Virus record (IMG/VR): IMGVR_UViG_3300001688_000696
Source of the DNA: a virus
Taxonomy: Duplodnaviria > Heunggongvirae > Uroviricota > Caudoviricetes
Direction: 5' to 3' (one strand)
Length of the DNA: 15,214 nucleotides
Shown here: one piece after another, positions 1,954-14,451 of the stretch
Layout: the number at the start of each line of letters is the position of its first letter
How positions within the stretch are numbered: the first letter of the stretch is position 1
Notes under the pieces: generated by a model
What the model saw: only the letters and a program-made list of their open reading frames with translations
What the model was told of the DNA's origin: nothing
Databases searched by the model: none
Translations under genes and position numbers: made by a program

Positions 1954-2508
1954 TTAGCTCTGGGGAAGTTCCACTCTGAAGCGAAACAGCAGGTCGCCCC
2001 GCACGTGGTCATCCCGGACAAGCGGTGATGTGACGTTGCTGTCAACAATCATGCCGCGCACTTTCTTGTGCTTCAGATATTCCATGCCGTGTTCTCTGCA
2101 CCACTTGACATCCATCCAAAAGGCTTCCGAACCGTCCGTAGTAGCCCCCATCCCGGCAAGCATCGCATTTTCCGGGCGTTTGGACGGCATGTTGTCATAG
2201 ACGTATTTTTCTTCTTCCGTCAGCGGGCGGTGTCCCGCCATGTAAATCCGCAGTTCGTTGCCGTCCAGCTCCACCAGCATGGCGTTTGGGAGTTTAAGCA
2301 GCAGACCATCTGTGTCCGTTGGACTTTCCCCGAGCAGCACGCCTCTGGCGTTTGCCCTGATAGCAAACATGGGTTTGCCAATCAGCCGGTGGGGATGGAC
2401 AGACAGCGGCGATTCAATCATCGTCAGCTTCACTCCGGTCGTTAGGGCACGCTTCATAGCGGCGATGGACATCTTTTTAGTGTGGGATACGGTTTGAAAA
2501 CGAGTCAT
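1954..2508 (-). CDS. Hypothetical protein (184 aa), paralog of 1217-1768
   Basis: GGGAG RBS, own promoter and terminator; co-linear similarity to 1217-1768. Confidence 0.85.
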   Translation of the reverse strand: MTRFQTVSHTKKMSIAAMKRALTTGVKLTMIESPLSVHPHRLIGKPMFAIRANARGVLLGESPTDTDGLLLKLPNAMLVELDGNELRIYMAGHRPLTEEEKYVYDNMPSKRPENAMLAGMGATTDGSEAFWMDVKWCREHGMEYLKHKKVRGMIVDSNVTSPLVRDDHVRGDLLFRFRVELPQS

Positions 2509-4236: not shown

Positions 4237-4476
4237 ATGGCTGTATCTTCCGAAGTCGAAAAATACCTGCAACTTCCATATTGCATTGAGGTCATCCATG
4301 ATGGCGAAGGTCTTTTTGCCCGTGTTGTTGAGCTGCCCGGCTGCATGACGCAGGCTGAGACATGGGCAGAATTGGGCGAGATGATAGAGGATGCCATGCG
4401 CGGCTGGCTGGAAGTGGCGCTGGAAGACGGGGATGACATTCCCTTGCCGAAAAAAAACCGTCAAAACGCTCAATAG
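4237..4476 (+). CDS. hicB: HicB-like antitoxin, N-terminal (toxin-binding) domain only
   Basis: YLQLPYCIEV...FARVVELPGCMTQAETWAELGEMIEDAMRGWLEVALEDGDDIPLP is the typical HicB/UPF0150 signature; GGAG RBS. Confidence 0.85.
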   Translation: MAVSSEVEKYLQLPYCIEVIHDGEGLFARVVELPGCMTQAETWAELGEMIEDAMRGWLEVALEDGDDIPLPKKNRQNAQ

Positions 4477-4687
4477 CCTTTCGTCAAAACAGCGACATAT
4501 TATGCTCTGGCTGGCGGATGGTCGAAGGTTTCCGCTTCCATGAGGTTCAGGAAAAAGGCCGGCTGGTGTTAGTGGAATATGCCTCGAAAGAAAAAAATGG
4601 GCAGATGCGCAGCGCGAAGCACGCTGATTCCGCAGATTGCTCAGTTATGATGATGGCGTTGTGTTCAGATAATCCCGGCAGACTGGG

Positions 4688-4728
4688 AAAATAAAAACAG
4701 CGTTCTGCAAAAACGCTGTTTTTATTTT
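4688..4728. terminator. Bidirectional intrinsic terminator
   Basis: 17-bp inverted repeat AAAATAAAAACAGCGTT/AACGCTGTTTTTATTTT between convergent units. Confidence 0.8.
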
Positions 4729-8396: not shown

Positions 8397-9890
8397 GTGG
8401 ACATCTTCGTTGGACGCAAAAGAGAACTGGAAACCCTGGATGAACTCTGGCGAAGTCCGAAGGCTGAATTTCTGGTGCTATACGGCCGGCGGCGGGTAGG
8501 GAAAACCCGCTTGCTGACGCACTGGTTTCAGAACAAAAAGGAACCCGTGCGGGTAATCTATTGGGCTGCTGACCAGGACAATAAAGAGTCGCATCTCCGC
8601 CAGTTTTCAGCCGAAATTTTCAAGTGTGCTTTCCCACGAGCTTCCATCCCGGCGAGCTTTTCCTACGCCGATTGGAACGAAATATGGGAACAGCTTGGCG
8701 AGATGGCAAAAAATGAACGGCTGGTGGTGATTATTGATGAGTTTCCTTACGTGCTGGCTTCTAACCCGGTTGTCGCCAGCCAGCTACAGCGGGCATGGGA
8801 TAGGGTTTTGGAGAAAACCCACATCATGCTGTGCCTGTCCGGTTCGCATCTCGGCATGATGCAGAAGGAATTTATCGACAGCAAAGCACCGCTGTACGGC
8901 CGGGCGACTCGAATAATGAAGCTGGCACAGCTTCCATTTGGCATTACGAAGCAGTATTTCCCGAACTATTCAGCCGAGGAGCGGGTGCGCCTGTATTCGG
9001 TTTTTGGCGGCGTTCCTCATTACTGGAAACAGATTGACCAGTCTATCGCTGTGATAGAAAATGTTGACCGGCTGGTGCTGTCGGGTGGGCTGTTGCAAAA
9101 CGAAGCCATCACCATGCTGCATGAGTCTGTGAAAGAACCTCAAAACTATGTGTCTATCCTGAAGGCGATTGCCACCGGGAACAGGACGCCAAAGGAAATC
9201 GAATCCCATACAGGCATCCGGGTGCAGCACCTTACGCAGTACCTTAGCAATCTCAATGGCCTCGGCTTCGTGACGCGCCGGGTGCCGGTGACAGGTACGG
9301 CGACCTCCCGGCTGGGGCGCTATGCGATTACCGACCCGTTTTTGCGGTTTTACTTCCGCTTTGTGGCTTCACGACTGTCACAAATCGAGTTAGGGCAGAC
9401 GTTGCAGGTCTCCGAAGAACTGCGCAGGCATTGGGTAGATTTCATCGGTACGCATACATGGGAAGAACTTAGTCAGGAATGGTTGATTCGTGCCAGCAAC
9501 CAATCTGCCATCCCAGTTTTCCCGGACGAAATCGGTGGCACGTGGACAAATGATGCGCAGGTGGATGTGGCTGGCATCAATTACATGACGAAAGAAATCG
9601 TGCTAGGGGAGTGCAAGTGGACGCTGCAACGCGAAAAAGCCAATGTACTGGAAAGTCTCGTGGAAGGGAAAACCGCTCGTGTTCTGCCAAAACAAGGCAC
9701 TTGGAAAGTCTTTTATCTCGGTTTTTCTAAAGAGGGCTGGAACGAGAACGCTCAGGCTTATGCCGAGCGGCTAAACGCTGAAGTCCAGAAAAAGAACGGC
9801 GGGCGGTTTAGTGAGTTCCCGTGGAAAATTGTAGGGATGCGCCTGCTGTCATTGGCTGACGTGGATAGGGATTTGGCACTCTGGTCGTGA
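8397..9890 (+). CDS. Archaeal-type ATPase (ATPase_2/STAND-like) with wHTH, DUF234 and a PD-(D/E)XK-like C-terminus
   Basis: Walker A GRRRVGKT (aa 30-37), Walker B VIIDEFPY, LCLSGS sensor, YAITDPFLRFYFRFV (DUF234-like), VDVAG...LGECKW. GTG start after AGGAAGGAG. Confidence 0.88.
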   Translation: MDIFVGRKRELETLDELWRSPKAEFLVLYGRRRVGKTRLLTHWFQNKKEPVRVIYWAADQDNKESHLRQFSAEIFKCAFPRASIPASFSYADWNEIWEQLGEMAKNERLVVIIDEFPYVLASNPVVASQLQRAWDRVLEKTHIMLCLSGSHLGMMQKEFIDSKAPLYGRATRIMKLAQLPFGITKQYFPNYSAEERVRLYSVFGGVPHYWKQIDQSIAVIENVDRLVLSGGLLQNEAITMLHESVKEPQNYVSILKAIATGNRTPKEIESHTGIRVQHLTQYLSNLNGLGFVTRRVPVTGTATSRLGRYAITDPFLRFYFRFVASRLSQIELGQTLQVSEELRRHWVDFIGTHTWEELSQEWLIRASNQSAIPVFPDEIGGTWTNDAQVDVAGINYMTKEIVLGECKWTLQREKANVLESLVEGKTARVLPKQGTWKVFYLGFSKEGWNENAQAYAERLNAEVQKKNGGRFSEFPWKIVGMRLLSLADVDRDLALWS

Positions 9891-9950
9891 GCGATTGCAA
9901 AAATGCAGGAATTTGTCCCGACGAATTTTCAAAAAAGTGGCTTTGGCCTA

Positions 9951-9986
9951 TTGACAAATTATTCCAATAGTGATATAATATTTATA
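9951..9986 (+). promoter_or_regulatory. sigma70-type promoter of the tRNA operon
   Basis: Perfect TTGACA-N17-TATAAT followed by ATTTATA. Confidence 0.85.
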
Positions 9987-10018
9987 CTAAACGAAACTGC
10001 GAACGAGGATTTGTAACG

Positions 10019-10111
10019 ATGACGACCAGAACCACTACCATGACCAAAACGACAAAGCGAATGATAAAACATTCGTCTGCCGTTACGCGTCTTGGGGTTC
10101 TGGCAATGTAA
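10019..10111 (+). CDS. Attenuator leader peptide (30 aa, MTTRTTTMTKTTKRMIKHSSAVTRLGVLAM)
   Basis: GAGGA RBS at 10005-10009. Eight Thr in the first 12 codons. Lies between the promoter and a terminator that precedes the tRNA array. Below the ORF-track size cutoff. Confidence 0.75.
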   Translation: MTTRTTTMTKTTKRMIKHSSAVTRLGVLAM

Positions 10112-10154
10112 TCTAATCCAACCAACTAGCAAATTCCCGAAACCGTATCGGCAG
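10077..10154 (+). promoter_or_regulatory. Antiterminator helix
   Basis: CTGCCGTTACG (10077-10087) pairs 10/11 with CGTATCGGCAG (10144-10154), which includes most of the terminator's left arm. Confidence 0.65.
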
Positions 10155-10186
10155 CTCCCCTGAACTCCGATACGGTTTTTCTTTTC
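10140..10186 (+). terminator. Attenuator intrinsic terminator
   Basis: AAACCGTATCGG/CCGATACGGTTT 12-bp stem, then TTCTTTTC, located between the promoter and the first tRNA. Confidence 0.85.
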
Positions 10187-10217
10187 TGCACCTTAATAAC
10201 CGAATATGCCACCCCAC

Positions 10218-10289
10218 GCCGGTATAGTTCAACCAGCAGAACGGCTGATTCGTAATCAGCAGGTGAGGGTGCAAGTCCCTCTATCGGCT
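10218..10289 (+). tRNA. tRNA-Thr(CGT)
   Basis: Acceptor GCCGGTA/TATCGGC; anticodon arm GCTGA-TTCGTAA-TCAGC; T-arm GAGGG-TGCAAGT-CCCTC (non-canonical loop); no CCA. Confidence 0.85.
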
Positions 10290-10291
10290 TT

Positions 10292-10368
10292 GGCTGTGGC
10301 ACAAAATGCTGATGGAAAATGCCGTGCGGCATTGGCATGGCAATCCGTATCCAACATTCTCCGCAGCT
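10292..10368 (+). ncRNA. Unidentified structured RNA or degenerate tRNA
   Basis: tRNA-sized spacer closed by GGCTGTGG/CCGCAGCT with an internal AATGCC-GTGC-GGCATT hairpin; no T-loop or anticodon arm recognisable. Confidence 0.3.
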
Positions 10369-10389
10369 TGCGTGTTACAGCTTATCTCC

Positions 10390-10462
10390 GGGCGGTTAGC
10401 TCAATTGGTAGAGCAGCGGACTTTTAATCCGAAGGCTGAGGATTCGAGTTCCTCACCGCCCA
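10390..10462 (+). tRNA. tRNA-Lys(TTT)
   Basis: GGGCGGT/ACCGCCC acceptor; loop CTTTTAA; GTTCGAG-like T-loop. Confidence 0.93.
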
Positions 10463-10468
10463 CCTTAT

Positions 10469-10541
10469 CCCGCCATAGCTCAATTGGTAGAGCGACGGAC
10501 TCTTAATCCGGAGGCTTCAGGTTCAAGTCCTGATGGCGGGA
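10469..10541 (+). tRNA. tRNA-Lys(CTT)
   Basis: CCCGCCA/TGGCGGG acceptor; loop CTCTTAA; GGTTCAAGTCC. Confidence 0.93.
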
Positions 10542-10552
10542 CTCCCCAACTT

Positions 10553-10623
10553 GGGTGGGTAGTCTAAAGGTAAAACAGCGGTTTCATAAGCCGCATTTGT
10601 GAGTTCGAGCCTCACCCCACCTA
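10553..10623 (+). tRNA. tRNA-Met(CAT), probably elongator
   Basis: GGGTGGG/CCCACCT acceptor; GCGGT-TTCATAA-GCCGC; GTGAG-TTCGAGC-CTCAC. Lacks the C1:A72 mismatch and triple G-C anticodon stem of fMet. Confidence 0.8.
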
Positions 10624-10634
10624 CTATTTCTTGT

Positions 10635-10706
10635 GCCTCTGTAGGTTAGCAGGAAAACCGCTTTCGTGGTAGGAAAGAATCGTGGGTTCGAGTCCCACCG
10701 GAGGCT
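10635..10706 (+). tRNA. tRNA-Thr(GGT)
   Basis: GCCTCTG/CGGAGGC acceptor; CTTTC-GTGGTAG-GAAAG; GTGGG-TTCGAGT-CCCAC. Confidence 0.85.
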
Positions 10707-10712
10707 CTGCAT

Positions 10713-10785
10713 GGATGCGTAGCTCAGTGGTTAGAGCGAGCGGCTCATAACCGTCTGGTCGGTGGTTCGAGTCCACCCGCATCCA
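10713..10785 (+). tRNA. tRNA with CAT anticodon, probably Ile2 (lysidine, reads AUA)
   Basis: GGATGCG/CGCATCC acceptor. The AGCTCAGTGGTTAGAGC...CGGCTCATAACCGTC.GGTCG body resembles bacterial tRNA-Ile2 as I recall it; Met identity is not excluded. Confidence 0.85.
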
Positions 10786-10789
10786 CAAT

Positions 10790-10900
10790 GCTGACACAGC
10801 AGGCAGAAATGCTTAAATGTTTGTTTCGTGCAGGATGTGCGCAGTGGGGCTGGTGTGGGTGTCAGCCGCCCGATTGCGGGTTCGACCCCCGCCCCACACG
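10790..10900 (+). ncRNA. Unidentified RNA with a tRNA-like T-arm and acceptor-like helix
   Basis: GCGGG-TTCGACC-CCCGC T-arm; GTGTGGG(10853)/CCCACAC(10893) helix; GCTGACAC(10790)/GTGTCAGC(10859) helix; AGGCA-GAAA-TGCTT hairpin. No normal D or anticodon arm. Confidence 0.45.
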
Positions 10901-10905
10901 AATAT

Positions 10906-10977
10906 GCCGCTGTAGTTTAATCAGCAGAACGCTCGGCTTGTACCCGAGGGGTGCGGATGCAAGTTCCGCCAGCGGCT
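10906..10977 (+). tRNA. tRNA-Thr(TGT)
   Basis: GCCGCTG/CAGCGGC acceptor; CTCGG-CTTGTAC-CCGAG; GCGGA-TGCAAGT-TCCGC (non-canonical loop). Confidence 0.85.
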
Positions 10978-10982
10978 CTTTT

Positions 10983-11054
10983 GCCCCTATATTTTAATGG
11001 ATAGAAAAACGGTCTTCTAAACCGGGAGTCCTCGTTCGAATCGAGGTGGGGGCA
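10983..11054 (+). tRNA. tRNA-Arg(TCT)
   Basis: GCCCCTA/TGGGGGC acceptor; loop CTTCTAA; CCTCG-TTCGAAT-CGAGG. Confidence 0.88.
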
Positions 11055-11120
11055 CCTTCTTCCAATCCTTTTGCCGAAACGAATTGCACTTAGCAATCAC
11101 AGGTCGCAGCAAAAGGAAAA

Positions 11121-11273
11121 ATGGAAGAAAATTTGCGAGAGGAGGCAATTCGCGAATACCTGCGAGAAAACTTGCGGGTGTCAGCGTCGTTAGACGCCGG
11201 TAGGGAATCAGAAAGCAGTCTCTACCTGTACGTCAATGTCTCCGTTAAGTTGGAAGACGAGGTCATTTTTTGA
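11121..11273 (+). CDS. Small hypothetical protein (50 aa) inside the tRNA array
   Basis: AAAAGGA RBS; MEENLREEAIREYLRENLRVSASLDAGRESESSLYLYVNVSVKLEDEVIF*; fills a gap between tRNAs. Not in the ORF track. Confidence 0.6.
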   Translation: MEENLREEAIREYLRENLRVSASLDAGRESESSLYLYVNVSVKLEDEVIF

Positions 11274-11348
11274 CACAACGGATTACATCAGTGTCTAAAA
11301 AACTGTCCGGCGAGTACCTCGGCTTACCGGACAGCCGTCCAACCTTTT

Positions 11349-11423
11349 GCCCCCATAGTTTAATGGATAAAACGGCTGGCTTCGAACCAGCGAATCCGGG
11401 TTCGACTCCTGGTGGGGGTGCCA
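11349..11423 (+). tRNA. tRNA-Arg(TCG)
   Basis: GCCCCCA/TGGGGGT acceptor; GCTGG-CTTCGAA-CCAGC; the only tRNA here with an encoded CCA. Confidence 0.92.
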
Positions 11424-11439
11424 TATTCGGTTATGATTT

Positions 11440-11512
11440 GCTCTGGTCGTCTAAATGGATAAGACGCCTTTCTCCTAAAAAGGAAATCCGGGTTCAAGTC
11501 CCGGCCGGAGCT
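11440..11512 (+). tRNA. tRNA-Arg(CCT)
   Basis: GCTCTGG/CCGGAGC acceptor; CCTTT-CTCCTAA-AAAGG; CCGGG-TTCAAGT-CCCGG. Confidence 0.9.
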
Positions 11513-11545
11513 TCGGTTTTGTGGAGTTATATTCAGGGAGAGAAT

Positions 11546-11983
11546 ATGATTGACTACGAGTTTACCGTTGACCGGCGAACTAACAAGGTCAATGTATTGA
11601 ATGTGGACGAGGGAGATTACACACTTGTCCATGATGCAGAAGCGTACCAGCTCTGGAAGCGAGCTGGCAGCCATTATTACACTGGTCAGGGGAAGCCGTT
11701 TTTATATGCTAATTATTCCAATCTTCCCGGCCCCGCATCTTATTCCATTCATAACCAAAAACCTATTGCGAGATTGTTTATGACCAACACACCTGCCGAA
11801 ATTCATCCTGCCAACTCGCTTGTTGTCCAAAATGCAACCGGCCCGAGCGCCAATGATTACGAGGTTATCCGCCGTTTTCTGGTTGACTGGCACGCCTGCA
11901 AAAGCTGGCAGCAATTTGCCAACGAACAAAGAATGGGGATTGCGAAGGGATTGTCAAACTGGTTGCCAAGCATTTCTGCCTGA
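11546..11983 (+). CDS. Hypothetical protein (145 aa), last gene of the tRNA operon
   Basis: ATG 11546 after AGGGAGAG; the ORF-track extension to 11270 runs through two tRNAs. Confidence 0.7.
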   Translation: MIDYEFTVDRRTNKVNVLNVDEGDYTLVHDAEAYQLWKRAGSHYYTGQGKPFLYANYSNLPGPASYSIHNQKPIARLFMTNTPAEIHPANSLVVQNATGPSANDYEVIRRFLVDWHACKSWQQFANEQRMGIAKGLSNWLPSISA

Positions 11984-12066
11984 AATTGCGCTTTGACTAC
12001 ATTTTAGCATTTTTTGTAGCATTTCTGCCTGAAATTGCGCTTTGACTACATTTTAGCATTTTTTGT
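11969..12066. repeat. Perfect 49-bp tandem duplication
   Basis: AGCATTTCTGCCTGAAATTGCGCTTTGACTACATTTTAGCATTTTTTGT at 11969-12017 and 12018-12066. Confidence 0.95.
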
Positions 12067-12128
12067 CACTTCAAAACCAGCAAGATATTTGTCATGTGGA
12101 AATAGTATAATTATCATAAAAAAGGCTC

Positions 12129-12164
12129 TTGACAATAAATAGGTTATTTGCTATAATATATATA
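12129..12164 (+). promoter_or_regulatory. sigma70-type promoter with TATA extension
   Basis: Perfect TTGACA-N17-TATAAT-ATATATA. Confidence 0.85.
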
Positions 12165-12165
12165 A

Positions 12166-12229
12166 TTCGGCTATAACGAGCCTTCCTTCTACTATCCAAT
12201 TGATAATTTTAGGCTCCTTACTTTCCGAA
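12166..12229 (+). ncRNA. Structured RNA unit 1 (GGCTA...TCCTTCT...TTTCC motif)
   Basis: TTCGG/CCGAA outer stem, GAGCCT/AGGCTC inner stem, TCCTTCT, TATC-CAATT-GATA hairpin. Confidence 0.55.
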
Positions 12230-12233
12230 GAAC

Positions 12234-12305
12234 ATGGCTACGGCGGGGCTTCCTTCTCAAGACATCTTTTTGAAAAAGATATAAGTTAGCTCCGCCAATT
12301 TCCAT
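12234..12305 (+). ncRNA. Structured RNA unit 2 (same architecture as unit 1)
   Basis: ATGG/CCAT outer stem, GGCGGGGCT/AGCTCCGCC inner stem, TCCTTCT, ATCTTTT/AAAAGAT hairpin. Confidence 0.55.
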
Positions 12306-12327
12306 TAATGCGCAGAAAAGGGGAAAA

Positions 12328-14451
12328 ATGAATTACGCTAACAATAATGAGATTAACGCCGTACTGCTGGAACGCAAGTGCAAGCTGATTGTTTTTGCTG
12401 AAAACCAGAGCGCGGACAACGCGCGCTACGTCATTGCCCTGATGCGAAACATCGAGAGCCTCGGTTTCACGTTTTCGCAATCTCTGTTCGACGCACTGCG
12501 CTACCAGCCAGTGCGTGAAATAACGTCATATTACGAATTCATTCTCCCCATCTTAAGGCGGATGGTGGGCGCTAATGTCGCTCACAAACCGTTTTATCTG
12601 AATTTTCCACGCCAGGTCGCTAAAATGAGCGACTTAGAGTGGATTCTTAACGCCCTGTTCCACTATTGGACGCTGGGCGAATGGAAGCCCGATTACGTCA
12701 AGGAATCCCGTTTTCCATTAATGGACGGGAAGCCGCAGGTGCGGGTGATTGACCTCGGCACGGTCGAGGAGTTTAACGCCCTGTTCGCCAACATGATGGC
12801 AGCCAGCGGTTCGCTGTCGGAAAACGACCGCAAATTGCTGGTCTGGTACATCAAAAATTCCAACCCAGATACGCTGGCGGCTTACCTGCCGGCCTCGATT
12901 CCTTCAAAGGAAACACTGGCGGTGGTCGCCGCCACGATTCTGGCGAATCACAAGTCGCACGCCGACTTGTTGAAGAGGTATTTTAAGACGGCGACGGACG
13001 TTCTCCGTTTGGTCGTCTCGATGTCGGGCGGCGATATTTCACTGGCGGAAAATACTCACTTCCGCAACTTCACCCGCGCCGAGCGCCGCTTCCTGTTGGG
13101 TCTGCTGGAAACCGACACGCATCTTGCGGAAAACATGGCGATGCACGCGGGTCTCTGGATTCGCCTGGGCGAAAAGCTGCATCCGGGCGAATATGCCAAT
13201 ATGTACCCTCGTGCATATGAGGCTTTCAGCAAGATTCGCAACGGCAAGGTACAGACCTTCAACAGCCGGGTGACTGCCGCTTGGGAAAGCGGCGACGTGG
13301 AAGGCACGCTGAACCTGTTGAAGGGGCGCGGCGGCGAGCTGGTACGCAGACTGGATTCCATGCTGCGTTCAGCGCCGGGCTATCATGCGGAAATCCTGTC
13401 CGCATTCGAGACGGTTTCCGACAGCGTGGCTACGCCGGTTCTGCTTCAAACGTTGGCGCACTTCGAACATCGCAACGAAGAACGCCAGTATCGCGCCTTC
13501 TTCCCGAAGGGGAATCTGGCGAAGGCCTACGTGGTTGAAAACAACCTGCCGCCGATGCGGGACGACATTCGGCTTGCGGCTGTTTCGGCACTCCGCAGGA
13601 CGCTGCTGCGCCGGTTTGCTGGCAAGCCTGCTCTGGGGAAGGTGTACATCGCCCCGGAACTGGCTGGCGTTCTGGTGCCGCTGGCACAGCGTTCTGCAAG
13701 CAATGCGCTGAAGTCCTTTGCTCGCGGCAGCCGCTTCGCTATCGGCGAAGCGGCAAAGGTCGTGCGTGCCTTCATCCACTGGCGCAATCCAGACCCAGAC
13801 AAACTGACCGATGTTGACCTGTCGGTCATGCTATACGACGAGAACTGGCAGTTCCGCGAACAGGTGTCGTATACGAACATCCGTTCACGCGAGTATCCGG
13901 TGTATCACAGCGGCGATGTTCGAAACGCGCCGGAAGGTGCAAGCGAATTCATTGACCTGGATGTAGACGCTCTACGGGAAGCAGGAGTGCGCTATGCAAT
14001 TTTCTCCGTGCATTCCTATTCCGAGCAGCCATTCAATGTAATCCCGGAATGCTTTTTCGGCTGGATGGAGCGGGAATTCCCGCAGTCTGGCGAGATTTAC
14101 GAACCGAACACGGTCGTAAACAAGTCTGACCTGACAGCTAATACGCGCATCGCTGTTCCTGTCGTCCTTGACCTCTTTGAACGCCAGTGTATCTGGACAG
14201 ACCTGGCTTTGAAGAAATGGCCGGGGTGGTACAACAACATCCATGCCAATGGCGAAAATCTACTACGGATGGCGGTTGGTATCATGGATACGCCGCGTCC
14301 AAACCTATACGACCTGTTTTTGCTGCACGTGGAAGCACGTGGAGGCGAACTCGTTGAAAACCGGGAAAATGCCGAGCTGGCCATCGCTTTGGATGGCGAG
14401 GCTGACATCACCCCGTTCGATACAGAGGTCATTCTGTTGGAATATCTGTAA
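12328..14451 (+). CDS. TerD-family protein with a long helical (TROVE/Ro-like) N-terminal region, 707 aa
   Basis: C-terminal DVDLSVMLYD...VSY...YHSGDVRNAPEGASEFIDLD is TerD-like. The N-terminal KTATDVLRL, RAERRFLL, WIRLGEKLHPGEY and GELVRRLDSML motifs match, from memory, the SCO0854/MXAN_6230-related family, here without the RING finger. AAGGGG RBS. The TROVE relationship is tentative. Confidence 0.7.
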   Translation: MNYANNNEINAVLLERKCKLIVFAENQSADNARYVIALMRNIESLGFTFSQSLFDALRYQPVREITSYYEFILPILRRMVGANVAHKPFYLNFPRQVAKMSDLEWILNALFHYWTLGEWKPDYVKESRFPLMDGKPQVRVIDLGTVEEFNALFANMMAASGSLSENDRKLLVWYIKNSNPDTLAAYLPASIPSKETLAVVAATILANHKSHADLLKRYFKTATDVLRLVVSMSGGDISLAENTHFRNFTRAERRFLLGLLETDTHLAENMAMHAGLWIRLGEKLHPGEYANMYPRAYEAFSKIRNGKVQTFNSRVTAAWESGDVEGTLNLLKGRGGELVRRLDSMLRSAPGYHAEILSAFETVSDSVATPVLLQTLAHFEHRNEERQYRAFFPKGNLAKAYVVENNLPPMRDDIRLAAVSALRRTLLRRFAGKPALGKVYIAPELAGVLVPLAQRSASNALKSFARGSRFAIGEAAKVVRAFIHWRNPDPDKLTDVDLSVMLYDENWQFREQVSYTNIRSREYPVYHSGDVRNAPEGASEFIDLDVDALREAGVRYAIFSVHSYSEQPFNVIPECFFGWMEREFPQSGEIYEPNTVVNKSDLTANTRIAVPVVLDLFERQCIWTDLALKKWPGWYNNIHANGENLLRMAVGIMDTPRPNLYDLFLLHVEARGGELVENRENAELAIALDGEADITPFDTEVILLEYL

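Follow-up and report, generated by a model that had tools for sequence, protein, structure and literature searches.

Why phages and giant mobile elements carry transfer RNA (tRNA) genes is a fifty-year-old question, for which codon compensation and escape from tRNA-cutting immunity are the current candidate answers. In enterobacteria, amino-acid operons are controlled by multivalent leader-peptide attenuators, such as thrL, which carries both threonine and isoleucine codons, and ilvL. Of the published systems, the trn operon of Anabaena sp. PCC 7120 comes nearest to an inducible tRNA array. It is a horizontally spread and silent array that is linked with tRNA repair genes and induced when translation is impaired, with control at the promoter level and mixed families among its tRNAs (PMC8421152). 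In the case of tRNA-cutting immunity, AriB of the PARIS system cleaves E. coli tRNA-Lys(UUU), Thr(UGU), Asn(GUU) and Thr(CGU), which have U36AAU in common, between positions 40 and 41, and the escape of phage T5 from PARIS requires its own Lys, Thr and Asn variants together; PrrC depends on cyclic N6-threonylcarbamoyladenosine at position 37 (ct6A37) (PMC12409363). Changes in the loops of phage tRNAs have been proposed as a route of escape from anticodon nucleases by van den Berg et al. 2023 (PMC10264068). The locus considered here is an array of ten tRNA genes in a 15,214-nucleotide stretch of viral DNA (IMG/VR record IMGVR_UViG_3300001688_000696, Caudoviricetes), the whole of which is called the window below and which belongs to a large uncultured element from anaerobic-digester metagenomes.

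These ten genes probably constitute one operon organized by amino-acid family (all Thr, all Lys, elongator Met, Ile2 and three Arg), carried by a large mobile element and gated by a leader-peptide attenuator of the trp/thr style, a reading that we favor with some reservation. The tRNA genes were called using ARAGORN and Rfam RF00005 (cut-off 29 bits) on the 15.2-kb window, and the anticodon loops (positions 32-38) were taken from the ARAGORN structures. Both programs agree on exactly ten genes, all on the + strand within 10218-11512, with Rfam scores of 53.8-72.5 bits:

10218-10289, + strand: tRNA-Thr(CGT), loop TTCGTAA
10390-10464, + strand: tRNA-Lys(TTT), loop CTTTTAA, positions 36-41 TAATCC
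10469-10542, + strand: tRNA-Lys(CTT), loop CTCTTAA
10553-10624, + strand: first tRNA(CAT), probably elongator Met, loop TTCATAA
10635-10707, + strand: tRNA-Thr(GGT), loop GTGGTAG (G32 with G38, a rare combination)
10713-10786, + strand: second tRNA(CAT), probably tRNA-Ile2, loop CTCATAA
10906-10978, + strand: tRNA-Thr(TGT), loop CTTGTAC
10983-11056, + strand: tRNA-Arg(TCT), loop CTTCTAA
11349-11423, + strand: tRNA-Arg(TCG), loop CTTCGAA, the sole member (G36) that does not decode codons beginning with A (ANN), with an encoded CCA
11440-11512, + strand: tRNA-Arg(CCT), loop CTCCTAA

Neither program detected an eleventh tRNA anywhere in the window, and Rfam at a relaxed threshold found no extra tRNA-like gene in 9900-12350. 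An earlier note on this DNA had reported T36-A37 in nine of the ten loops, which the ARAGORN structures confirm with Arg-TCG (G36) as the exception, and the unusual bases it had listed (T32 in Thr-CGT and the first CAT tRNA, G32/G38 in Thr-GGT, C38 in Thr-TGT) are all correct. Its list of amino acids stands for the three Thr, the two Lys, the AGR-reading Arg and the two CAT tRNAs and is incomplete in one respect, isoleucine having been missed, as the second CAT tRNA is probably tRNA-Ile2.

The identities of the two CAT tRNAs follow from different features. The first has G1-U72, T11-A24 and just two G-C pairs at the foot of the anticodon stem; it is therefore not initiator-like and is probably an elongator tRNA-Met, and its comparison with E. 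coli gave no match. Over positions 8-63, the second shares 89% identity with a tRNA of an E. coli prophage, for which the PGAP annotation is tRNA-Ile (anticodon CAT); the two have the same anticodon arm, GAGCGGCTCATAACCG, and D arms that differ at one loop base. Because of this match, the second CAT tRNA is probably a lysidine-containing tRNA-Ile2 that would read AUA, and hence would still be an ANN decoder. Within the array, the closest pairs are isoacceptors (Arg-TCT/Arg-TCG at 72%, Thr-CGT/Thr-TGT at 68% and Lys/Lys at 68% identity), and tRNAs for different amino acids share 47-68% identity. Recent duplication as the origin of the set was ruled out, given that identities do not exceed 72%. 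Beyond the element, bases 10396-10434 of Lys-TTT are 97% identical to tRNA-Lys of Streptomyces phages.

The array is preceded by a regulatory region that comprises four features:

9951-9979, + strand: sigma-70 type promoter, TTGACA and TATAAT with a 17-base spacer and an extended TG, 12 of 12 consensus matches
10019-10111, + strand: leader open reading frame (ORF), 30 codons, MTTRTTTMTKTTKRMIKHSSAVTRLGVLAM, preceded by the ribosome-binding site GAGGA (10005-10009)
10075-10093, + strand: antiterminator strand inside the leader ORF, predicted to pair with 10138-10155 (terminator 5′ arm)
10139-10191, + strand: intrinsic terminator, a hairpin with a 13-bp stem at 10139-10179 followed by the U run TTTTTCTTTTCT

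Some 40 bases separate the promoter from the leader start codon, and the GAGGA ribosome-binding site lies 9 bases 5′ of the leader ATG. Codons 1-17 of the leader are ATG ACG ACC AGA ACC ACT ACC ATG ACC AAA ACG ACA AAG CGA ATG ATA AAA, and all 17 are read by tRNAs of the array (as ACG, ACC, ACT, ACA, AAA, AAG, ATG, ATA, AGA and CGA). Conversely, a cognate codon is present in the leader for nine of the ten array tRNAs, including Arg-TCG, through CGA, and the putative Ile2, through a single ATA. Codons read by the array account for 15.8-17.4% of the codons of the element, such that 16 of them in succession after the start codon would be expected with a probability of about 1e-13, and the rare AGA, CGA and ATA found in the leader each make up at most 0.6% of element codons. 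Across the six frames of 79 kb of the element, windows of 16 codons with at least 13 array-read codons occur in the leader ORF alone, and the best window elsewhere contains 12.

Folding of the leader region gives a z-score of -4.7. For the full leader, minimum-free-energy folding pairs the regulatory-codon region with 10071-10113 (region 1:2), and in the segment 10072-10166, from which the terminator 3′ arm is absent, the minimum-free-energy structure of -25.2 kcal/mol is the antiterminator pairing of 10075-10093 with 10138-10155. As modeled, the alternative 1:2, 2:3 and 3:4 pairings are the classic attenuator layout. The tests for a leader-peptide attenuator accordingly identified a promoter, a short ORF with a ribosome-binding site and regulatory codons, a terminator, and an antiterminator that is mutually exclusive with it.

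Three metatranscriptome libraries contain unbroken contigs that extend from the leader through the terminator into the tRNA genes (9534-10693 in X16, 10010-10474 in X17 and 10009-10761 in X18), which fits read-through transcripts; coverage depths in these RNA libraries do not rank expression, and parts of the window left uncovered in the thinner runs are not thereby silent. Two of the contigs start at 10010 (X17) and 10009 (X18), between the ribosome-binding site and the leader start, and one of them is joined straight to adapter; this point may mark a site of processing or the 5′ end of an RNA. Seven contigs of other assemblies carry the array with the same composition and order and with at least 99% identity, and one strain (L006/L024) has kept the array while the 707-aa gene located behind it is missing. 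A search of IMG/VR and of GTDB genomes with a back-translated leader pattern found no more distant copy.

From this layout we infer how the switch would work. Transcription would begin at the consensus promoter, and a ribosome would then translate the 30-codon leader. When the regulatory codons are read fast, the ribosome would go on to the stop codon and cover the antiterminator strand, the terminator would form and little tRNA would be made. When a tRNA is scarce, cleaved or unmodified, reading would slow down and the ribosome would stall, freeing the antiterminator strand, which would pair with the 5′ arm of the terminator and allow RNA polymerase to continue into the tRNA genes. Because the controlled genes encode tRNAs and not biosynthetic enzymes, the signal would be a shortage of usable tRNA and not of an amino acid. 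The element may thus gauge the decoding of particular codons and replenish exactly the tRNAs that read them. A specific role is suggested by an operon holding only decoders of one codon quadrant and one further Arg isoacceptor, and coupled to a putative sensor of the same codons. In the literature, no publication on leader-peptide control of tRNA genes was found.

Several observations weigh against this attenuator reading and against grouping by family as its rationale. The codon AGG, cognate to Arg-CCT, is absent from the leader. The contigs from RNA libraries may include carried-over DNA, and one run spans the whole window. All available copies are at least 99% identical, so that alternative pairing has no covariation test. 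Finally, grouping by family alone leaves unexplained why four or five ANN families should share one operon (chance probability 0.002-0.012), and a class-level logic may lie behind the grouping.

The near-purity of the array in U36-A37 tRNAs is real, and its improbability depends on the unit that is counted. Drawing tRNAs from a typical set of 46 anticodons, 13 of them with T36, gives a probability of 6e-6 for at least nine T36 tRNAs in ten. Isoacceptors cluster for ordinary reasons, and the amino-acid family is therefore the fair unit; at that level, the chance that four or five families all come from one codon first-base class is 0.012 to 0.002. The pattern is thus non-random at the family level and moderately improbable, far less extreme than the per-tRNA value. 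Membership of the class modified with N6-threonylcarbamoyladenosine (t6A) at A37 is predicted here from the U36-A37 loop letters, and A38, usual in this ANN-decoding class, is missing from Thr-GGT (G38) and Thr-TGT (C38). The array is neither the complete t6A class nor confined to it, as it lacks Asn-GTT, Ile-GAT and Ser-GCT and includes Arg-TCG, which reads CGA. Arg-TCG adjoins the other Arg tRNAs and its cognate codon CGA occurs in the leader, which fits an arrangement by amino-acid family better than one by t6A class. As an organizing principle, the t6A class fails on these memberships, with Arg-TCG in the array, CGA in the leader, and Asn, Ile-GAT and Ser-GCT left out. On the family-grouped reading, the near-purity follows from the families that share one sensor (Thr, Lys, Met, Ile-AUA and Arg), and selection on t6A itself is not demonstrated. 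A broader proposal is that the element sorts its tRNA operons by anticodon position 36, equivalent to the modification class of position 37, each with its own decoding-speed sensor, since defences (PARIS-like U36AAU-specific or ct6A-dependent nucleases) or failure of modification would remove tRNAs class by class; we regard this as distinctly unlikely. If such class-wise sorting held across elements, tRNA gene order would be tied to the specificity of tRNA-targeting defences.

The alternatives differ in what they take to have assembled the set. The earlier note had proposed that it replaces one class of host tRNA under attack; in its full form, the set would substitute for host U36-A37 (t6A) tRNAs destroyed by a host anticodon-arm nuclease, the odd loop bases would be escape changes, and the leader sensor would be the trigger that responds to the attack. 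We consider this account unlikely, and the t6A and nuclease components are not demonstrated, while a nuclease-replacement role for the array as such is possible. What holds of the claim is that the array is a coherent and conserved unit and that a nuclease attacking several ANN decoders has been published; what does not hold is the single class, in view of the Arg-TCG gene, which is moreover sensed through the leader CGA, and of the missing Asn, Ile-GAT and Ser-GCT. The U36-A37 loops of nine tRNAs, a set that the codon demand of the element does not explain, the precedents of PARIS AriB with T5 and of PrrC (PMC12409363), the proposed evasion by loop changes (PMC10264068) and the suitability of a slow-decoding sensor for such a role all favor it. 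The cleavage motif itself divides the array. Compared with the AriB site U36AAUC/A41 of E. coli, which is the reference here in place of the host of the element, the motif differs in Thr-TGT (TACCCG), Thr-GGT (TAGGAA), Arg-TCT (TAAACC), Arg-CCT, the first CAT tRNA (Met) and the second (Ile2). The UAAU motif is thus missing from Thr-TGT, Thr-GGT and Arg-TCT, of which the last has the same TAAACC as the resistant Lys tRNA of T5, but the sensitive motif is unchanged in Thr-CGT (TAATCA), and TAATCC is found in the two Lys tRNAs. Moreover, bases 10395-10431 of Lys-TTT are common to another tRNA-Lys(TTT) gene of the same community, found on an X17 RNA-library contig, after which the two diverge; this 37-base match, which extends from the D arm into the 3′ strand of the anticodon stem, of which it includes the 5′ part, speaks against escape, and the other gene may be the tRNA-Lys of the host. 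The atypical loop bases do not bear out escape changes either, given that three of the four loops are common variants and only the G32/G38 of Thr-GGT is rare: three other large phages, with 87 tRNAs between them, have T32 in 24% of these, C38 in 16%, G32 in 2% and G38 in 5%, and their T36 tRNAs have non-canonical loops about as often (9 of 30) as those of the array (4 of 9).

Codon compensation would instead have the genes of the element use these codons more than the host supplies them, which we judge very unlikely. The earlier note had argued that codon bias does not account for the set, and the usage of the element itself (80 predicted genes, 21,525 codons) bears this out. ANN codons amount to 27.7% of the total and are not enriched; AGA, AGG and CGA, each at 8% of Arg codons, are the three rarest Arg codons of the element, and ATA, at 10%, is its rarest Ile codon. 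Since the Arg and Ile2 tRNAs serve the rarest codons and the Thr and Lys isoacceptor sets are complete, with C34 and G34 species for G- and C-ending codons, the demand of the element fails to account for the set, and just 24% of its Arg codons are read by the Arg tRNAs of the array. In favor of compensation, the element has a G+C content of 49.5% and prefers AAA (60% of Lys codons) and GAA (75% of Glu codons), so that AAA, ACA, AGA and ATA would be poorly served if the host were richer in G+C, and rare-codon tRNAs such as Ile2, Arg-TCT and Arg-CCT are typical prophage cargo, an E. coli prophage having tRNA-Ile(CAT) beside tRNA-Lys. We find it highly improbable that the ANN purity is a historical accident, left by descent through duplication or by capture of one pre-existing tRNA block and without present function. 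That isoacceptors are mutually closest within the array is what such a history would leave, and the family-level chance probability of just 0.002-0.012 was computed after the pattern had been seen. The tRNAs for different amino acids are, however, no more alike than tRNAs generally, which argues against recent duplication with anticodon shifts, two published tRNA-rich large phages, Wofford and XacN1, have a mixed tRNA order, and a leader matched codon for codon to the content of the array requires selection.

Two intervals of the array contain further features. In the 119-base spacer between the second CAT tRNA and Thr-TGT, positions 10843-10902 contain a hairpin that resembles a T arm (GCGGG TTCGACC CCCGC), with the complementary pentamers GTGGG and CCCAC on either side. 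This structure was not called by ARAGORN or Rfam and looks like a tRNA remnant or a minimal tRNA-like element. Directly before Arg-TCG and Arg-CCT, a 50-codon ORF with an AAGGA ribosome-binding site occupies 11121-11273 (+ strand) and is followed by a strong hairpin at 11303-11334 with no U run directly adjoining. Its Arg codons are CGA (twice), CGC, CGG and AGG, no Pfam family was identified for its product, and its sequence is the same in all strains, so that conservation is uninformative. This ORF might be a second checkpoint or encode a small protein.

The surroundings of the array were assembled from positions 23,476-112,727 of JGI contig Ga0134096_1000099 and a bridge of approximately 7 kb across a repeat-rich gene where every assembly is interrupted, bringing the part of the element seen to at least 96 kb. 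This 112.7-kb contig contains the window in reverse complement and has the same ends in two ENA assemblies, and pieces of it occur in many Logan assemblies of anaerobic-digester metagenomes. The possibility raised earlier that the remaining tRNAs lie close by was checked with ARAGORN, which found no other tRNA in the flanks of the window, 23.6 kb upstream and 72.7 kb downstream; Rfam found neither tRNA nor RNase P RNA in most of these surroundings (JGI positions 23,476-33,446 left out). The element encodes many DNA methyltransferases, ArdC, TraX, an SNF2 helicase, a ClpB-like ATPase and TnpB, and this gene content, together with jumbo-phage homologues of its 707-aa gene, indicates that it is a large mobile element, phage-like or plasmid-like. 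The 707-aa gene lies behind the array at 12328-14451 and belongs to PHROG 33734, and its product resembles TerD, judging by its neighbors in a language model. A second perfect sigma-70 promoter (12129-12157, 12 of 12 matches, with TG) lies approximately 170 bases before it. In IMG/VR, the 707-aa protein has one distant relative at 35% identity, whose 154-kb record has no tRNA above the cut-off, and in GTDB genomes it has no match. The ClpB-like and SNF2 proteins, used as queries for relatives of the element, gave no match, and the 503-aa AAA_33 protein of the element provided no evidence of an RNA-repair kinase/phosphatase.

Other loci of the element were noted in passing. A CRISPR array begins at L037:6337-6427, approximately 23.6 kb upstream of the window start and directly after a gene for a HAD hydrolase, with a repeat close to GTTTCCCCACATGCGTGGGGGTGTACC and a spacer of approximately 33 bases; the bridge and three Logan contigs stop within it, which makes it a point where assemblies of the element break. 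A 551-aa protein (L034:104-1759, - strand) has a signal-peptide-like N-terminus and a long (TPTR)n repeat, inside which several independent assemblies stop, including three contigs of approximately 112.6 kb (L011-L014 ends); these shared contig ends are therefore assembly breaks and not genome ends. Within the window, a gene for a 79-aa HicB-like antitoxin (PF15919) at 4237-4476 (+ strand) is followed by a 58-codon ORF at 4518-4694, and two adjacent paralogous genes at 1217-1768 and 1954-2508 (- strand) encode proteins of 183 and 184 aa, of no known family, with common motifs such as LTEEE..DNMPSKR.ENA and HGMEYL.

Among large phages, the sorting of tRNA genes varies. Streptomyces phage Wofford and Xanthomonas phage XacN1 (385 kb) freely mix first-base classes in their tRNA order, and LR745208, a 485-kb uncultured phage, sorts its tRNAs by amino acid (three Thr, five Leu, four Ser and three Arg). 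The latter keeps isoacceptors together regardless of the first base of their codons, with Ser-GCT beside Ser-NGA and Arg-CCT beside Arg-ACG and Arg-CCG, just as Arg-TCG stands with the other Arg tRNAs here, and families of different first bases share its clusters. In all three phages, unlike the present array, clusters mix first-base classes. LR745208 also contains a homologue of the 707-aa gene (LR745208.1, 149256-151277) amid its tRNA clusters (141.8-201 kb), and no Thr- or Leu-rich leader ORF of at least 20 codons was seen before its clusters of three Thr and five Leu tRNAs.

The escape of T5 from PARIS resembles the present case in that a mobile element has its own copies of several ANN-decoding tRNAs, that the published targets share U36-A37-A38-U39, and that more than one replacement tRNA is needed at once. 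It differs in that Lys-TTT, Lys-CTT and Thr-CGT of the array keep the sensitive U36AAUC; the array also includes Met, Ile2 and three Arg tRNAs and is without Asn, and the tRNAs of T5 have not been reported behind a codon-matched leader. With thrL and ilvL, the leader shares a short ORF with a run of regulatory codons, the 1:2, 2:3 and 3:4 pairings, an intrinsic terminator and the predicted sensing of codons for several amino acids, and its sequence MTTRTTTMTKTTKRMIK resembles thrL in style; the enterobacterial leaders control biosynthetic enzymes, whereas this one precedes tRNA genes. Compared with the Anabaena trn operon, control here is predicted to pass through a leader peptide rather than the promoter, and the content of the array is limited to the amino-acid families that are named in its leader.

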